35,380 nucleotides of DNA, from positions 1 through 35,380 of the forward strand of contig JBHLNF010000022.1 of the NCBI GenBank assembly GCA_048937405.1. The letters run 5' to 3'. A program made the position numbers and the translations under genes. The DNA comes from Promethearchaeota archaeon (GTDB lineage Archaea; Asgardarchaeota; Lokiarchaeia; Sigyniarchaeales; SOKP01). The notes under the pieces are model-generated. The model was not told the origin of the DNA, ran no database searches, and worked only from the letters and a program-made list of their open reading frames with translations. Positions 2,210 through 26,294 of the stretch are shown here, in pieces (position 1 is the stretch's first letter; every line of letters starts with the position of its first letter).

Positions 2210-3226
2210 TTGATGGAATTGAAACTATATCTAATTGACCAAGGAAATTTAAAAGAAATCAATAAATTAATATTTTCAAGTGGAGATGTATATCTCCTAG
2301 ATGACGAAAAGACTATTTATGTGTGGATAGGAAACAAATGTTCTGTAGATGAAAAAACCGCTGGTGCTGCCCAAGCGAGGACACTCGATCAGCAACGTGG
2401 TGGCGCTGCTAAAATAATTACAGTTGATCAAGGCCAAGAATCCAAAGAATTTTTGAAAGTTATTAACCCAATGGGTGCTATGAAAGTAGTAGAAAAGAAT
2501 TATGCTAAGACATTACTTAAAGATGTAACTACAGGTGATTTTGCTCAATTTCATGAATGGAAAAATATTCTTTACCGTGTTTCATCTGAAGAATTTGAGG
2601 ATATCAATGCTATGAAAATGATTCAAGTTCCGTTTAAAAAGGAAACACTTGATTCGGAAGATTGCTTTGTCGCTGATTTAGGAAATAAGGTTTATATTTG
2701 GCAAGGAAATGCATGTAGTGTAACTGAAAAAGTTAAAGCCGGTCAATGGGCACGTAATATTGATGCCGAAAGGGCAGGTCTGCAACAAGAAACAATTTTC
2801 GAGGAGGGAGATGACGCAGAATTTATTTCTGCTTTAGAAAGAGGTGTAGATTACAAAGAATCCGATGCTGTCCAATTAAAAGCGGAATCTGTGTTGGAAG
2901 GAGAAGATGAAGATGATAGAATTGCGAAAGCTATCCAACCAGAATTTAAATCAGAGGTTAAAGAAGTTACTCCTGCAGAAGTCAAAGAGGATATTTCTGA
3001 AGTAAAAGCTTCAGGAGCAGCTCCAGGAATACCTGGAAAAACAGATAGTTCAATTTTAACTGTGGATCATATAGAAGGACGTAGAAAATGTCCTGAGTGT
3101 GGTAATGATAATCCTCTTATGATTCATGAAAGTGTTGATAAAGGAAATATTATTCTCGACTATCCACGTATGTACGGAAAAAAATTTCGATGCGGAGAAT
3201 GTGGTGTAGAGTGGCGCGAGAAGTAA
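2210..3226 (+). CDS. Two-domain gelsolin-family protein with acidic linker and C-terminal Zn-ribbon (eukaryotic signature protein)
   Basis: Two gelsolin repeats (FSSGDVYLLD..IYVWIG..CSVDEK..QGQESKEF; LDSEDCFVAD..VYIWQG..CSVTEK..EEGDDAEF). Tail carries CPECG...CGECG. The start may be the ATG at 2213. Confidence 0.9.
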   Translation: MMELKLYLIDQGNLKEINKLIFSSGDVYLLDDEKTIYVWIGNKCSVDEKTAGAAQARTLDQQRGGAAKIITVDQGQESKEFLKVINPMGAMKVVEKNYAKTLLKDVTTGDFAQFHEWKNILYRVSSEEFEDINAMKMIQVPFKKETLDSEDCFVADLGNKVYIWQGNACSVTEKVKAGQWARNIDAERAGLQQETIFEEGDDAEFISALERGVDYKESDAVQLKAESVLEGEDEDDRIAKAIQPEFKSEVKEVTPAEVKEDISEVKASGAAPGIPGKTDSSILTVDHIEGRRKCPECGNDNPLMIHESVDKGNIILDYPRMYGKKFRCGECGVEWREK

Positions 3227-3302: not shown

Positions 3303-4328
3303 TTATGGTTTTTGCATATCTCTACGCATTAATTTAATTTTTTTCTTCAATTCTATTATTTCGTTATCTTTTTCTTCGAGTTTTATTTTAGAGTCTAGTA
3401 ATTCTCTCATTTCTACCTTTAAAGTCTTAATTTCCTCTACTCTATCATCAAGCATACTTCGCATATTTGCTAATTCTAATTCAAATTTACCTGTGAGATT
3501 TCCTGATTTTTTATGTGCTTCTTCTAATTTTTCTTCTAAATGTCCTACTAGTTCTTGAATATTTATATTTTTTTGTTTCAATTCTTCAATTTCTACGACT
3601 AACGCTTTATTTCGTTCTGATTTTTTCTCTAAATCTTTTTTTACTAAATTAAATGTCTCAAATTGTTGTTGAAGGTCATGTATTTTTTGATTAGCGGCTT
3701 TTAAATCATTTTCAAGACTAAAAATTACTTTCTCTTTTTCAGTTATTATCTCATCTTTTTTCTCTAAGAGAACTTCAACCTTTTCGAATTTAGATTTTTG
3801 AATTGAATCATTTTCTAAATAGTTGATTTGTTCCTTTAATTCTTTGATCATGACTTCTTTTTCATTTAAACTATTGATTAATTCTTGATTTTCAATTTGG
3901 TTATTTTTGATTTGTTCAATTTCAGTGTTCAAACTTTTAATTTTTTCAACTTGATCATTAATTATTTTATTTAGTTTAGCTGTATCTTCATTCAAACGAG
4001 AATTTAGACTTTCAATTTCTTTATTTTTATTCTCGATTGCATCATATAAATTTTGAACTGCTTGGGTGTGGAGTTCCTCGTTTTCAGCTTTTTGAGAAAA
4101 TTCTTGAATCTTTTCTTCTAATCTTTGAACTTTTTCGTCTTTTTTATGTATTTCTCCAATTAATCGATTATTTTCTTCAATAAAGAATTTAATTTGTTCC
4201 TTGAGATTATTTTCAGTTTCTAAAGTCTCCCCCTCTTCTTCTTTTTCTTCTACCCATCCAAGCGTAGAAAGAGCATCTACTATTGATTGATCATTATTTT
4301 GTTCATGATCTTCACGTTCATTAGACAT
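3303..4328 (-). CDS. Long coiled-coil protein of unknown function
   Basis: 341 aa of nearly continuous heptad-like E/K/L/I-rich sequence with no catalytic motif. Confidence 0.8.
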   Translation of the reverse strand: MSNEREDHEQNNDQSIVDALSTLGWVEEKEEEGETLETENNLKEQIKFFIEENNRLIGEIHKKDEKVQRLEEKIQEFSQKAENEELHTQAVQNLYDAIENKNKEIESLNSRLNEDTAKLNKIINDQVEKIKSLNTEIEQIKNNQIENQELINSLNEKEVMIKELKEQINYLENDSIQKSKFEKVEVLLEKKDEIITEKEKVIFSLENDLKAANQKIHDLQQQFETFNLVKKDLEKKSERNKALVVEIEELKQKNINIQELVGHLEEKLEEAHKKSGNLTGKFELELANMRSMLDDRVEEIKTLKVEMRELLDSKIKLEEKDNEIIELKKKIKLMRRDMQKP

Positions 4329-5209: not shown

Positions 5210-5821
5210 TTATTCTTCTAATCTTTCTTTCCAAGAATCTTTTCTGGGTAATATATCTGTTTTGTTTTGTTCTTTTTGAGATTGAGTATTTAAAGAAAAT
5301 CGGAATGGTTTTTCTGAACTTTGAGTAGTTGATATCAATCCAATTAATTCTCTTAAATTATTTTGTGATGTCGTTCCTTTTCCTGTAACTTTTTTGTATA
5401 TTCTCTTTACAGCAAATATCCCTAAAGAAAATGTAATTGAGAAAATAATATAAATAGCTACCCAACCATTACCAAAAATAAGAAAGGGAAAAGGTAATAT
5501 ACCAGAAGCATAATCAGAATATATAATACTCAAAACTATAAAAATACCTATAAAAATTATACATCTGATACACATAGGTATAATTTGTTTCTTCATTACC
5601 TGTTTCATAAATATTATTGATTCTTGTTGGGTTTTTAGCATTAATTGATAATCCCCTAAAAGTTGAGCGTTTCTCATACGTTCTTGAATGTTTAATGCCT
5701 TCTTCCTCATTTCACTTATAAATTTATTTCTTAATCCTAAAATGTAATTAAGAATCATGCCAAAAATGATCATACCAATAGTTATAAACAGAATTTGAAT
5801 TACAACAGCTGTAGTTGACAT
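5210..5821 (-). CDS. EMC3/TMCO1 (DUF106, Oxa1-superfamily) membrane insertase-like protein
   Basis: TM1, then a cytosolic coiled coil (EMRKKALNIQERMRNAQLLGD...QQE..MKQVMK..PM), TM2, and TM3 with GWVAIYI. Confidence 0.7.
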   Translation of the reverse strand: MSTTAVVIQILFITIGMIIFGMILNYILGLRNKFISEMRKKALNIQERMRNAQLLGDYQLMLKTQQESIIFMKQVMKKQIIPMCIRCIIFIGIFIVLSIIYSDYASGILPFPFLIFGNGWVAIYIIFSITFSLGIFAVKRIYKKVTGKGTTSQNNLRELIGLISTTQSSEKPFRFSLNTQSQKEQNKTDILPRKDSWKERLEE

Positions 5822-20666: not shown

Positions 20667-21530
20667 ATGAACTTTGAAAATCAAGACTTAAAGTTGAAAA
20701 CGCTTATACAGGTGTGTAAAGAAACAGGGAACTTAAAAAAAATGGCTATAGTCTGCTTTGAACTAATAAGTAGAAAGTTGGACGAAATAGGAGTTAAACT
20801 AGGTGTAAGAAAAAGACTAGATTCTGGAGAAACTCTTGTTGAATATATGGAATTGATAAATCAAATTTTTCTTGATAATTTAGGAATTTCAATATTTCAG
20901 GATAATATTATTGAGAAAATAAGTGAATGTGAACCATTATTCTTAAAAAATCGAGGAAATATTCCTTTTTCTAGTATTAGAACCATATTTAAAGTTTTTT
21001 ATGAATTACGGAAATTAGATGTTCCAAACCTTCATAGAGAGTTCGATGATTATGATATAATGACTATATCTCCATATAGGTTAAGATCTTTTTTTTCCTC
21101 TAATTCAAGAGATAGACACAACAATAGTACAAGTGTATTAGAGCCGATGATATTACAAAAAATAAAGGAAAAACAACTTTCTCTTCAAAAACAATCTCAA
21201 AATAGTTTTAATAGATATTCCTTAGAAACTGCTATCTCATTAAAAAATGTTGAAAATTCAATACGTTTGAAGAGAAAACAAAAAAAAATTAAGTTTGAAG
21301 GGAAGCTTAAGGATAGTATCAGATATCAACAATCTGTTGAAAATGTGGTAGGTTATTTCATTATTGGAGTTGTTATTTTACTTTTTATACTTGGAATATC
21401 CATACTCCTCAAACTGATGATTTATCCGAATATAATAAGTACATTAAGTTATTGGTCGATGATATTAATCGGAGGGGGCGCATTACTTCTTTTTATATAT
21501 ATTCAATATTTTATAAGGAGGATATATTAA
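20667..21530 (+). CDS. Hypothetical protein with two C-terminal TM helices
   Basis: RBS GGGGGT upstream; soluble helical N-terminus; TM hairpin at the C-terminus. Confidence 0.75.
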   Translation: MNFENQDLKLKTLIQVCKETGNLKKMAIVCFELISRKLDEIGVKLGVRKRLDSGETLVEYMELINQIFLDNLGISIFQDNIIEKISECEPLFLKNRGNIPFSSIRTIFKVFYELRKLDVPNLHREFDDYDIMTISPYRLRSFFSSNSRDRHNNSTSVLEPMILQKIKEKQLSLQKQSQNSFNRYSLETAISLKNVENSIRLKRKQKKIKFEGKLKDSIRYQQSVENVVGYFIIGVVILLFILGISILLKLMIYPNIISTLSYWSMILIGGGALLLFIYIQYFIRRIY

Positions 21531-21532
21531 CT

Positions 21533-24500
21533 ATGGTCCAATCGTATATACCTAAAGATTTCAGTAAAAAAAATAATAACAAGAAATCTTTTGAAAAATG
21601 GGGAGAACAGTCTGAGGGAAAAAAAGATTACTTGAATCTCTGGAGGGTAAATCCTTCATTTAGAGATATTAATAGAGTAAGATCATTAACCAAAGCTCTC
21701 TCATTACTGGTATTAACGTTTATATTTATAATATCTGTATATAAAACAACTTATAATTTAATTACTTCCCTATTTTCGGGTATTATATTTCTCATTATAT
21801 TTATTTTGATTTTTAATAAGGAGTTTTTTTCCTTGAATTTACTATTTTCTAGGTTATTTCGAAGAATGAGAATTTTTGATCCTTTTGAACCTTATATATT
21901 CTGGTTTAATAATGGTGATAAACATACTCTTTTTGTCCATAATAAGAACGATCTTGTTACTTTTGCTATGCAGATTTATAGTATTGAAATGATCCCTGAA
22001 AATGTAAATCCCAATGTTGGAGGTTTTATTAGATCATTAAGTATCAAAGATATTAGACTCTCATATTCATATCAAGTAGTGCAAAAACCAATAATCAATC
22101 TTTTTGATAATAATATCAATACACAGGAGACTTATAATTCTTCAACATCAACGATAGGAAAAATCTATTTTTCTGTTTTTGGTAGTATTTCTGGTATTTT
22201 AACGAGTAAAAGAATTGACAAACTCAATCATTTCATAAATTTATATTCAAGTTATCTAAAAAGTAATCTGGTCACTAATTTCCACCATTTTAAATCCAAA
22301 CTATTATCAGGCGATGATTTACTCAACGGAGTTCGGGTAATGTTTATAGGAGTTGATTCTCAAGAAAATAAAAATATGAGTGCAAAATCATTAAAAAATA
22401 GCATTAAGAAAATTTATCTTAAGTTTTCTTTCGTCATATTCTTACTCATCCATACTGGATGGTTTTTTTCAGAGATTATAGTTTTAGATTTAACTTATAT
22501 ACTGCTTATTGATTTATCATTAATCTTTTTACTTATATTTACATGGTGGCGTTCAATTTTATTTGAAATTTCAAAGAGGTCTTTAAGGACAGATACAGAA
22601 ATGGATTTTTTGCATCCCTTTAAAAAAGTCAAATTTTACACATTGAGAAAATTTCCTCACAGTATTTTTATGCACGTTGATAATCGACTTTTAATAGGTA
22701 TAAAGATAATCAATTTAAAGTATATTTATAATAATACTTATCATAGGTTTGATCCGAGATTCGATCATAGACTTGATCGCTTTATTGAAGCACTTAATTA
22801 TCATAAAATCCATTTTACTTATACCTTGAAAAATGAACCTCTTTGTTATTATACTTTTGATAGGTATGGTCTTAAATCAGTATATGATAAAGTAAAAAGA
22901 AATTTATTATTTCACCCTAATTATAGGATTCAAGATGCATTAGGTGAAGAACAATGGTTATCATATAGAAAAGGTATGTGGTACAGTTTTTTAACGATTT
23001 CTATAAATAGGTATAAATTAACAGAGTCTTTTGAGATTGCTATACTTGAAAAATTGGAACATGAACTTGAATCTCACTCTATAACTTTAAAAGGAGCTTT
23101 TCAAAGCAATTTTCATAATTATAAAGTAGAGGATTTAGAATTAAATCGATTAATCTCAGGTTATCTTTTTTCTGTATTCAAGCATAATAATTTTAGAATA
23201 GATGGCTCGCATCTTTCGTATCTTATGCTTCAAGGGGCGACTTTAATACCATTTAGTACTCCAGTACAGATTCTAAGAAGAACAACAGAATCAGAATTAC
23301 CTGTTGAGTTTAATACTCCGACTTATCTAAAGAATTTTATCACAATAGGATATACATTAAACACTGAAGTGTTTGAAAAACAAGTACCTGTTGGATTTCT
23401 ATATGATCAAATAAAGAATTTACTTATAGTTAATGGTATTTACCAGAGTAGAGAATTAACTTCAATGAAAATTGTGTCAGAATTAATACCGCTTGGGAAG
23501 CCTTCCCTCATTTTTGATTTTTCTGGTCAATGGAGGAAACTTCTCTCCTTATTTAAAGGATCTCCTTATATCAAAGACATTTCTCATTTTCGTTTAGGAA
23601 CTGCTTTTACTATAAATCCATTAAATTCGGACATCCCTTATGATACAAATAATACCGATTATCTTGAATATATGCTTGACGCTTTTGCACTAGCATTCAA
23701 GAAAGATCCAAGAACGATTGATATACTCCGAGATATTATAAGTAAAAATCCAGAAATAGATTTATCATCAATGCAATTGGAAGCAAAATCCCAAAATAAT
23801 TGGCAGAAGACATCTTTGAGTTTCTCGATTGAAACATTATTTGCAGATCTAACTCCTCAAGATAAAACCTATTTTCAAGATTTGTATGGACCTAATAAAA
23901 TCCTTGTAAATGATTTTATTAATGATGAAAAAACAATTATCATTGATCTTTCCATTTTAAAAGATTTAAATAAGAAATTATTTTTTGCATTTTTAATCTT
24001 ATCAAAGATTATTCATTATATAAAATATGAAAAGGATTATCATCCAAAGGTTATTGTATTACCTTTCATTGACTTATTTTTCGATTCTAGATTTTTAGAC
24101 ACTCGTATGAATTATGGGAAAATTAATTCGTTTCTAGGGCCTCTTGTAACAAAAGATTTCGGACTTCTCTTTACAGCAAATCAAGTACATTATCTTCATC
24201 CTAATATCTTCACATATTTTAGTAATATCATTTCATTCAGAGCTACTGATAATAACGATGTTGCATTATTAAAAAGTCTATTAAGTCTGTATGAAACACC
24301 TGGAACTGGTGAATACTCCAAAAGTCGTCATAAAACATATAAATTGGAGTATTTAAGAGCTCTTAAAAATAATAACATCTTAATAAAGAGAGAGGATATT
24401 TACCAAACATTTCCTGCGTTAATAGATTGGAAAAAAGTTAAGAATTCTGAACCTTATACTTATGACCAAGTAATTGAATTTATGGAGGAACAAGGCTATA

Positions 24501-25378
24501 ATTTACGTTCTACAGAACAAATGATTATAAATGGAGCAATGACAACGATCTTTGAGAAAGATTTAGGGTCACACATTTTCTATATTGAGGAAATTATTAA
24601 TTTTATGAAATCTATAAAATCTGTTGAGAGAGTAGGTAACTTATATAAGGATAAAATTAAGAAAGAATTATTAAAGTGGATTTATCCAAAGCTTTTAAAA
24701 AAGACAAGTAATAAGGGATATATGAAAAAAATTAGAGACGATCTTTTGAACAAACTTTTAAAACATGATTATTTAGTAGAGGATCATCCTAAAAGAGCAA
24801 GTGGTTCAGAATCACTGGCAACCTCTTATAAAGTAGGGGATCAATATGAAAAAGCCTTAAACGATTACTTTAAAATCAAAGGAAAAAATTCAAAAATTAC
24901 AGTTGAAAAAGTGAGTGAAGATTTAACAGAGGATGTAAGCAAAGAAAAGGAAAAAGAAACTTTTACTAATCAGCCACGAAAGTATATAATACGACAAGAA
25001 GATGTATATGAAGCATTAGCACGTGAATTCAGTGATTTTACCTATGAAATGAGTAAGTTATACAAATTCATGAGGAATACTAACTATTCTAGTGCCTTAA
25101 AGATTGAACAGAATATTATAAAGAAATTTCTCTTTAATGTATTTCGTCATTATTATAATATTGATCGTGCAGTAATACCCTCAGAGGTGTTATCATTTTT
25201 TGAAACAATGGAAAATACAGAAAATTTTCCATTTACTGTGCAAAAATTAAAGGATTACTTAACAACGTATCAAGAAATTAACTTAGATATTAATGATCCC
25301 GAGAAATTAGCACATAAATTATACAATTCCATTCACCATTTCTTTATTAAAATTCAAAATTATATTTATCAGGAGTAA
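21533..25378 (+). CDS. Large membrane-anchored VirB4/HerA(FtsK)-like protein with degenerate Walker motifs
   Basis: Start reassigned to ATG 21533 (RBS AAGGAGGA at 21515-21522, 2 nt after the previous stop). HerA/VirB4-like motifs: NLLIVNG, LIFDFSGQW, FTINPL, TIIIDLS, FTANQ, IISFR. Confidence 0.65.
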   Translation: MVQSYIPKDFSKKNNNKKSFEKWGEQSEGKKDYLNLWRVNPSFRDINRVRSLTKALSLLVLTFIFIISVYKTTYNLITSLFSGIIFLIIFILIFNKEFFSLNLLFSRLFRRMRIFDPFEPYIFWFNNGDKHTLFVHNKNDLVTFAMQIYSIEMIPENVNPNVGGFIRSLSIKDIRLSYSYQVVQKPIINLFDNNINTQETYNSSTSTIGKIYFSVFGSISGILTSKRIDKLNHFINLYSSYLKSNLVTNFHHFKSKLLSGDDLLNGVRVMFIGVDSQENKNMSAKSLKNSIKKIYLKFSFVIFLLIHTGWFFSEIIVLDLTYILLIDLSLIFLLIFTWWRSILFEISKRSLRTDTEMDFLHPFKKVKFYTLRKFPHSIFMHVDNRLLIGIKIINLKYIYNNTYHRFDPRFDHRLDRFIEALNYHKIHFTYTLKNEPLCYYTFDRYGLKSVYDKVKRNLLFHPNYRIQDALGEEQWLSYRKGMWYSFLTISINRYKLTESFEIAILEKLEHELESHSITLKGAFQSNFHNYKVEDLELNRLISGYLFSVFKHNNFRIDGSHLSYLMLQGATLIPFSTPVQILRRTTESELPVEFNTPTYLKNFITIGYTLNTEVFEKQVPVGFLYDQIKNLLIVNGIYQSRELTSMKIVSELIPLGKPSLIFDFSGQWRKLLSLFKGSPYIKDISHFRLGTAFTINPLNSDIPYDTNNTDYLEYMLDAFALAFKKDPRTIDILRDIISKNPEIDLSSMQLEAKSQNNWQKTSLSFSIETLFADLTPQDKTYFQDLYGPNKILVNDFINDEKTIIIDLSILKDLNKKLFFAFLILSKIIHYIKYEKDYHPKVIVLPFIDLFFDSRFLDTRMNYGKINSFLGPLVTKDFGLLFTANQVHYLHPNIFTYFSNIISFRATDNNDVALLKSLLSLYETPGTGEYSKSRHKTYKLEYLRALKNNNILIKREDIYQTFPALIDWKKVKNSEPYTYDQVIEFMEEQGYNLRSTEQMIINGAMTTIFEKDLGSHIFYIEEIINFMKSIKSVERVGNLYKDKIKKELLKWIYPKLLKKTSNKGYMKKIRDDLLNKLLKHDYLVEDHPKRASGSESLATSYKVGDQYEKALNDYFKIKGKNSKITVEKVSEDLTEDVSKEKEKETFTNQPRKYIIRQEDVYEALAREFSDFTYEMSKLYKFMRNTNYSSALKIEQNIIKKFLFNVFRHYYNIDRAVIPSEVLSFFETMENTENFPFTVQKLKDYLTTYQEINLDINDPEKLAHKLYNSIHHFFIKIQNYIYQE

Positions 25379-25752
25379 TGTTCAAATTGAATGGGAAACT
25401 TACAAGAGAGGAAAATCTCAGAAAAATAGTGGAAAAAAGAATTTTTGATAAGCATCAATTAGTTGAGTTAAAAAAGTTAACTCAAAAAGTAAGTACTGGT
25501 GAAATATCGGCAAGAAAACTACGAGAAACCATCTTAGAATTTAGAGAAGACATTTTAGAAAAGGTATTAGATATATTTGAATTCTATGCACACCAAACAA
25601 CTACTCAAAATCAATTATCGGAATATGCTTCAAGTAATAATCCTGAAATTACAGTAGATCTTCAAGAAAAAAATGGATTATTAAACGAAGTTGCATCAAG
25701 GATCGATAAAATTTACAGGAAATTGAAAGAAAAGTTAGAGATATCCAGATAA
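25378..25752 (+). CDS. Hypothetical helical protein, last gene of the operon
   Basis: TAATG stop/start overlap with the upstream gene; followed by a T-tract. Confidence 0.7.
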   Translation: MFKLNGKLTREENLRKIVEKRIFDKHQLVELKKLTQKVSTGEISARKLRETILEFREDILEKVLDIFEFYAHQTTTQNQLSEYASSNNPEITVDLQEKNGLLNEVASRIDKIYRKLKEKLEISR

Positions 25753-25919: not shown

Positions 25920-26294
25920 CTAAAATTCATACCCACATTTTTTTCACTGTTATTGAGATAATCAATAACATTTGCAAACATATTTTTTAGCGTATATTTT
26001 TACACCACCCATCTGATGCAAAACTTGGTTTCTATCTTCGTGTGTTGCAAAAGTAGTTCCTCCGCATTCAGGACAAACTCTTCTACCTTCAACGGGTGGT
26101 TTTTCTTCCATTCTTGCTTCTTCTTCTTGTTTATCAACAATCACGGATGGTTTAACAGTAGTAGCTGGGGTGGGTGATGAGGATGACATTGCTGGAGCCG
26201 AACTCATAGAAGGAGTTTCAGTTTTCAATAATGTATCCAATTTGCCATTGATATCTTCAAGTAATTTCAATACTTTTTGTTCAAATTCTGACAA
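25920..26294 (-). CDS. Small Zn-ribbon protein interrupted by a 30-nt intron; predicted spliced CDS joins 26294..25972 and 25941..25920, 114 aa ending YVCKKCGYEF
   Basis: TTG start with AGGAG RBS; coiled-coil N-terminus, S/P/T linker, EGRRVCPECG. The second CxxC is complete only after removing 25942-25971. Confidence 0.85.
25942..25971 (-). other. Putative bulge-helix-bulge (BHB) mRNA intron, 30 nt
   Basis: mRNA: UAUGU-UUGC-AA^A-UGUUAUUGA-uuauc-UCAAUAACA-GUGA-AA^A-AAAUGU. It has a 9-bp inner stem, a 4-bp central helix (UUGC/GUGA) and two 3-nt bulges. Confidence 0.8.

Follow-up and report, generated by a model that had tools for sequence, protein, structure and literature searches.

A C-terminal zinc module shared by a two-domain gelsolin and a small gene with a predicted mRNA intron in a Promethearchaeota genome

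The stretch of DNA analyzed here (hereafter the window) comprises 35,380 nucleotides of a contig assigned to a Promethearchaeota archaeon. On its forward strand, at 2210..3226 (+), lies a gene of 338 codons counted from a TTG at 2210, for which the ATG at 2213 is the likelier start, encoding a two-domain gelsolin followed by a linker and a C-terminal Zn domain. The gelsolin repeats were detected in two stretches by the Pfam family PF00626 (Gelsolin) with an E value of 1e-27, and the product matched chain G of PDB 7WHG, entitled 'Lokiarchaeota gelsolin (2DGel)', over its full length with an E value of 9e-177. By its two gelsolin repeats and its orthology to a characterized 2DGel, the protein belongs with the Asgard two-domain gelsolins (2DGel) and, judging from sequence comparison, is the orthologue of the crystallized Loki2DGel (PDB 7WHG). 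The acidic low-complexity linker that joins gelsolin domain 2 to the Zn domain was placed at approximately 2843..3070 (+) from the sequence and from the alignment with 7WHG, where it aligns with the 69-residue 'Link' of Loki2DGel. The Zn domain occupies 3071..3223 (+) and is predicted to fold as one C4 zinc ribbon bearing a long beta-hairpin, on the basis of a profile match with an E value of 1e-26 and an AlphaFold2 model with a pLDDT of 89. Its nearest paralogue is a stand-alone Zn protein encoded on contig C5 of the genome, to which it is 70% identical.

Two other genes were noted beside the gelsolin gene. A 341-residue coiled-coil protein without a Zn domain is encoded at 3303-4328 (-), convergent to the gelsolin gene and 76 bases from its stop, and a membrane protein resembling EMC3/TMCO1 (PF01956, 30.5 bits for a cut-off of 27.1) is encoded at 5210-5821 (-). 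PF01956 is known chiefly from ER insertases of eukaryotes and from YidC-like proteins of archaea.

The C-terminal extension of Loki2DGel has been described before and its two parts were named 'Link' and 'Zn' (Akil et al. 2022, Commun Biol 5:890, PMC9433394). According to that work, the Zn domain is always C-terminal; gelsolins carry it, as do unrelated multidomain proteins, and it also exists as a mini-protein by itself, but outside Loki it was not consistently detected (PMC9433394). A profile of 78 domains matched residues 283-332 of 7WHG chain G with an E value of 7e-18, and this was the sole solved chain convincingly matched. Searches of Pfam and NCBIfam with the Zn domain gave no family at its cut-off and returned only generic ribbons below threshold; in the ESM Atlas solely the protein's own Promethearchaeota cluster was matched.

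A second copy of the module is encoded on the reverse strand of the window, in a small gene whose reading frame is interrupted. The unspliced minus-strand ORF starting at 26294 reaches a stop after 110 codons; read on in frame, ten codons including three stops lead to a short second coding segment. The gene can be divided into a first exon (25972..26294 (-)), which codes for an N-terminal helix, a disordered Ser/Pro/Thr linker and, from about 26090, the first knuckle and the hairpin of the Zn domain; a predicted 30-base BHB intron (25942..25971 (-)) containing the three in-frame stops; and a second exon (25920..25941 (-)), delimited by the reading frame and the spliced product, which begins with the final base of a Lys codon and continues through six codons, encoding the second CxxC and the terminal Glu-Phe, to the stop. 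Removal of 25971-25942 yields a 114-residue product with the tail of the intronless orthologues, and only after this 30-base removal is the second CxxC pair present. Read from the sequence, the Zn domain of the small gene could only be completed if the 30-base intron left the mRNA. In the structural model of an intronless orthologue, residues 3-24 form a confident helix, residues 27-50 are disordered and residues 70-114 make up the ribbon. The 114-residue protein would be the smallest carrier to combine an N-terminal helix, a linker and the Zn domain, with its gene split after the region of the third Cys codon.

Just upstream of the intron-split gene, and convergent to it, are two ORFs of the forward strand. 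One, of 1308 codons (21452-25378 (+)), has predicted membrane segments near the N-terminus and no Pfam match at an E value of 1e-4; the other, of 124 codons (25378-25752 (+)), has no Pfam match, and its start overlaps the stop of the former.

The interruption can be folded into a BHB motif composed of an AAA bulge, a 9-bp hairpin, a 4-bp central helix (UUGC/GUGA) and a second AAA bulge. The central helix pairs the end of exon 1 with the end of the intron, and the 9-bp intron hairpin lies between the two AAA bulges. The geometry is canonical, with cuts after the second base of each bulge, and was also seen in the minimum free energy fold; the outer exon helix is weak, amounting to 1 bp in a strict scan. 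Genes for two EndA paralogues (PF01974) and one RtcB (PF01139), all scoring over cut-off, are encoded in the genome. Asgard EndA has been reported to be of the broad-specificity alpha-beta type (PMC5829648), and Asgard tRNA genes to be heavily intron-laden (bioRxiv 10.64898/2026.10.13.758758). Excision of the intron from the mRNA, which would restore the second zinc knuckle, would require the tRNA splicing endonuclease, with its two subunits, and RtcB as the ligase; we infer this splicing step from structure, covariation and comparison. Allowing up to 3 mismatches, the 23-base core of the hairpin has a single occurrence in the genome, and therefore the insert is no multi-copy MITE at that stringency.

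The original prediction held that the gelsolin tail and the tail of the spliced product were paralogous. Both tails were found as it gave them, the one directly at the end of the gelsolin and the other after removal of the 30 bases, and their paralogy was borne out by a profile, by pairwise BLASTP and by signature residues, which agree. The profile was built from eight tails of this genome, leaving out the second gene, and was run against the six-frame ORFs of the 4.47-Mb assembly. It retrieved 10 ORFs at E values of 1e-7 or better; the next matches were generic zinc ribbons at 1.4e-3 or worse. The spliced 114-residue product scored 54.6 bits with this profile over model positions 2-48, its match ending at the last residue; exon 1 alone scored 38.2 bits, with a match ending at model position 42. 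In BLASTP, the gelsolin tail and an intronless orthologue of the 114-residue protein were 38% identical with an E value of 2e-10. Across the 78-domain alignment, an Asp, one Tyr and all four Cys were invariant, and conservation was at least 90% for the Pro that follows the first Cys, for the Lys-Lys pair and for the Glu before the terminal aromatic residue. Among 150 carriers, three of the four Cys of the two Cys-X-X-Cys pairs were invariant and the fourth nearly so.

The motif that had been read off the two tails proved to be the signature of the family, its residues other than Cys (Asp, Tyr, Lys-Lys and Glu) being invariant or nearly so in the 78 domains. Weak sub-threshold matches to many zinc-ribbon families of Pfam could be taken to mean that the resemblance of the tails is merely a generic C4 zinc-ribbon pattern. 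The profile results refute this reading, to which hardly any probability can be given: non-Cys residues are invariant, the scores of family members are clearly separated from those of generic ribbons, and the pairwise E value is 2e-10. Within the family two subtypes were recognized, one with Gly-Lys-Lys and a Glu-Trp-Arg end and the other with Ala-Lys-Lys and a Glu-Phe end; the 114-residue protein belongs to the subtype ending in Glu-Phe or Glu-Tyr and the gelsolin tail to the other.

Because exon 2 supplies the second CxxC knuckle together with the C-terminal Glu-aromatic end of the family, the paralogy lends support to the splice prediction, as had been proposed. It amounts to a clean and independent test of an mRNA intron: the family predicts the six codons that should follow, and BHB excision would deliver them.

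The same gene was compared among relatives. It was uninterrupted in 12 of 18 congeners (G001-G004, G008-G013, G017 and G018), in which the insert was precisely absent. A 30-base insert at the same site as in the window (site B) was present in three congeners (G006, a closed 3.34-Mb chromosome, G014 and G016) and in three metagenome contigs from separate samples. Over six distinct sequences, 93.6% of the cells of the site B structure were paired, with 3 compensatory pairs; in a control in which the partners were slid by 1 to 3 columns, 33 to 76% were paired with 0 to 1 compensatory pairs, the comparison covering these six sequences only. The codon before the insert is AAU in most carriers, including G006, G014 and G016, and becomes AAA after excision, that is, the Lys of most intronless orthologues. 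Three other congeners (G007, G005 and G015; loci L016, L021 and L027) and three MAG contigs (L046, L047 and L048) carry an insert of 29 or 30 bases at a second position (site A), four codons upstream and following Tyr-Ala-Lys. The site A hairpins are almost wholly different in sequence and all of them pair; their central helix is compensated, as in UGCU/AGCA versus UGCU/GGCA, with one mismatch in the in-frame register of G005 and G015. As this second site is occupied in the same 114-codon gene of congeners, the position of the intron is polymorphic within one genus. That congeners differ in which of two positions of so small a gene is occupied suggests that Asgard protein genes have gained or moved introns recently.

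An alternative to splicing would be that the ribosome skips the 30-base insert by programmed translational bypass, with take-off from one Lys codon and landing on a matching one. The insert of the window has features that would suit such an event, namely AAA on both sides, a stable hairpin right after the take-off codon and a length that is a multiple of three. This is nevertheless improbable, because the upstream codon is AAU in G006, G014 and G016, so that take-off and landing codons do not match, and because 29-base inserts exist at site A, which shift the frame. In addition, the 4-bp helix between exon 1 and the 3' end of the intron covaries as a BHB requires, and the enzymes for BHB splicing are encoded.

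The annotated product of the second gene ends at 110 residues, and such shortened calls occur in the database, as would be expected of a decaying pseudogene or an assembly artefact in which the six-codon match is a remnant. The comparison among relatives makes this very unlikely. Four genomes share the same insert, among them one closed chromosome of 3.34 Mb, and so do three metagenome samples unrelated to one another; exon 2 stays open at the length of the orthologues and varies mostly synonymously; and hairpin pairing is kept through compensatory changes. In all 12 carriers of either site the tail left after excision has 22 codons, exactly the orthologue length. Variable columns downstream of the insert fall at 9 third, 1 first and 0 second codon positions for site A, and for site B 5 are at third positions as against 3 others. 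Excision of a BHB intron is the preferred reading of the interruption.

Interrupted members of the family were also observed elsewhere. On contig C7 of the same genome (L008:640-824 (-), corresponding to about 281140-281323), a small lone Zn gene is split by a 29-base insert that fits a BHB, with the helix CAGU/GCUG and the bulges AUA and AAG; its excision would give a product of about 56 residues bearing the family signature. In another genus, in the orthologue of a C28-type coiled-coil carrier (L049:897-1080 (+), contig C18 of G086), the first CPxCG knuckle is interrupted by a 30-base in-frame insert that includes a TAG and forms a hairpin; a strict scan of it gave no canonical in-frame BHB solution.

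The distribution of the module was surveyed at increasing phylogenetic distance. Its ten members in this genome are the gelsolin, six proteins with coiled-coil or helical N-termini, a 282-codon protein of unknown fold and a pair of small proteins that stand alone, and in all members the Zn module stands at the extreme C-terminus. About ten conserved carriers per genome, mostly coiled-coil proteins, were counted in the genus, and each of the 31 genomes examined across the order (31/31) gave 4 to 12 matches, with ORF lengths that recur between genomes. A search of 1.84 billion cluster representatives returned 524 matches, 283 of them at an E value of 1e-10 or better. Of these 524, 150 were listed, and almost without exception among them the match reached the C-terminus or stopped within a few residues of it. 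Pfam matches on these 150 carriers were to coiled-coil families almost throughout; their names in the source databases are the usual misnomers of coiled-coil proteins, and the named sources are all Promethearchaeota MAGs, with no protein of L. ossiferum among the named matches. These counts, the terminal position and the structural model agree with the proposal of a recurrent C-terminal module joined by disordered linkers to the gelsolin and to coiled-coil proteins.

In a survey of the phylum, 76 of 151 genomes had matches. Sampled genomes of the Loki order held 5 to 11 copies and each of 14 further Asgard families exactly one; no match was obtained in families f9, f14, f16, f19, f22 and f24, among others. 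Five of the single copies were inspected (L041-L045, from G067, G055, G036, G031 and G041) and each proved to be an ORF of 50 to 68 codons that bears the complete signature. No conserved neighbours were found around these five stand-alone homologues, which are adjoined by genes for UbiA, BshC-like, phosphoesterase, VTT, GNAT, PGM, CBS and MFS proteins. Since single copies elsewhere in the phylum stand against many fused copies in the Loki order, the module most likely originated as a lone Asgard mini-protein that was multiplied and fused in the Loki lineage. The putative ancestor would have been a stand-alone mini-protein of about 50 to 65 residues, expanded in the Loki order to some ten genes per genome. 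In that order the module always occupies the C-terminal tip of its carrier and is preceded by a disordered linker, whether the carrier is the gelsolin, one of some six coiled-coil proteins or the protein of unknown fold, and lone mini-proteins occur besides. The census suggests that the expansion of a docking-type tag, starting from one Asgard mini-protein, was confined to the Loki order.

One carrier of the genome has a distinctive architecture. The protein encoded at L004:455-1363 (+) (contig C7, 114754-115662) consists of a long proline-rich N-terminus, a Gln/Leu-rich coiled coil and then the Zn domain; its polyproline stretch could be a candidate ligand of profilin.

The fold of the module was modelled with AlphaFold2 on a 78-row alignment (pLDDT 89), which gave two knuckles and a long hairpin with strands at 25-36 and 41-48. 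The module of about 48 residues would be a single C4 zinc ribbon in which the residues specific to the family (Asp-Lys, Tyr and Lys-Lys) sit on the long beta-hairpin, and the hairpin Tyr is the one invariant in the 78 domains. The best Foldseek matches were TFIIS domain III, Rpb9/TFS, RNA polymerase I A12.2 and RNase P Rpp21, all with E values of 0.18 or worse and TM scores of about 0.5, and the cut-off of the TFIIS zinc ribbon family PF01096 was not reached (12 to 19 bits for a cut-off of 21). Because all fold matches are weak, the model is best described as a classic zinc ribbon of the TFIIS/Rpb9 type without a closer solved relative.

These matches are also the starting point of the main rival account of function, according to which the Zn domain is an RNA- or DNA-binding ribbon that would tether its carriers to RNA, to RNA polymerase or to ribosomes. 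In favour of this, the domain has a basic character, its Arg-Arg and Lys-Lys are conserved, and its ancestral form is a single-copy mini-protein, like many zinc ribbons of archaeal ribosomes and transcription. However, the fold matches (E 0.18 or worse) reflect a generic ribbon and no curated family was reached; furthermore, the acidic hairpin tip of TFIIS is missing, and there is no ribosomal or transcription gene context. A role in nucleic acid binding is accordingly regarded as unlikely.

The preferred reading is that the module serves as a portable docking tag, because it is always terminal, is carried behind flexible linkers by unrelated proteins, has a conserved hairpin surface and also exists alone. 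Taken on its own, this functional reading is evenly balanced. Such a tag would use the conserved face of the hairpin to bring different carriers to one common ligand, for which the lone copies may be competitors. The more specific suggestion that the tag targets its carriers to the cytoskeleton found no support in any test, and the isolated Zn domain of Loki2DGel did not co-sediment with F-actin in vitro (PMC9433394). The description of the carriers as cytoskeleton-related likewise held for the gelsolin only and was supported by no test for the others. As a whole, a lineage-specific Zn module, putatively acting as a docking tag, with a small carrier whose gene is split by a BHB intron, is the best explanation of the data, to which we assign a probability of roughly 0.8.

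A bolder proposal can be put forward, tentatively and as rather doubtful. Through the Zn tag, the gelsolin might be tethered together with some six coiled-coil proteins to one receptor, forming a Loki-specific scaffold network around the actin system in which lone Zn proteins compete, and the 48-codon unit might at the same time be a preferred landing place of mobile introns of the tRNA type. The latter idea is based on three BHB-compatible sites, two in the 114-codon gene among congeners and one in the gene on contig C7, and on a fourth interruption, not clearly of this kind, from another genus. In practical terms, the module of about 50 residues is a defined bait for the partner that would anchor gelsolin and coiled-coil proteins in the closest cultured relatives of eukaryotes.

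The module and the intron can each be set beside known systems. Coiled-coil proteins of eukaryotes bear C-terminal targeting domains, such as the FYVE domain of EEA1 and the GRIP domain of golgins. The likeness is one of analogy: in both cases otherwise unrelated carriers have a long coiled coil followed by a small module at the C-terminus. The Loki module is related to these domains neither in sequence nor in fold. With the zinc ribbons of TFIIS domain III and Rpb9-TFS (PDB 1TFI and 1QYP), the predicted fold shares a three-stranded antiparallel sheet, two CxxC knuckles and one long hairpin. Unlike them, it lacks the acidic catalytic tip of the hairpin, has no significant sequence relation to them, and is found on cytoplasmic carriers rather than on transcription factors.

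The closest counterpart of the intron is the BHB intron in the cbf5 pre-mRNA of Crenarchaeota (Yokobori et al. 2009, PMC2738675). Both are short, lie in protein-coding genes and are present in some lineages and precisely absent from others, and in both the presumed cutting enzyme is the tRNA splicing endonuclease. The Asgard intron differs in phylum and in host gene, in its length of 29 to 30 bases and in occupying two alternative sites of a 114-codon gene, and its splicing is deduced here from sequence.

Finally, the Zn domains of Loki2DGel and MKD1-2DGel have the same two CxxC pairs, strict C-terminal position and conserved hairpin Tyr, and the Loki2DGel Zn family is likewise present on unrelated proteins and alone. 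The gelsolin of the window aligns with Loki2DGel from end to end, Zn domain included, and no difference was found between them. The module is thus already published and the paralogy itself adds little. What goes beyond that report (PMC9433394) is the census of about ten carriers per genome, the two subtypes, the single-copy relatives outside the Loki order and the intron-split members; the 114-residue protein, its gene split by an intron, newly joins a module family that was already known.
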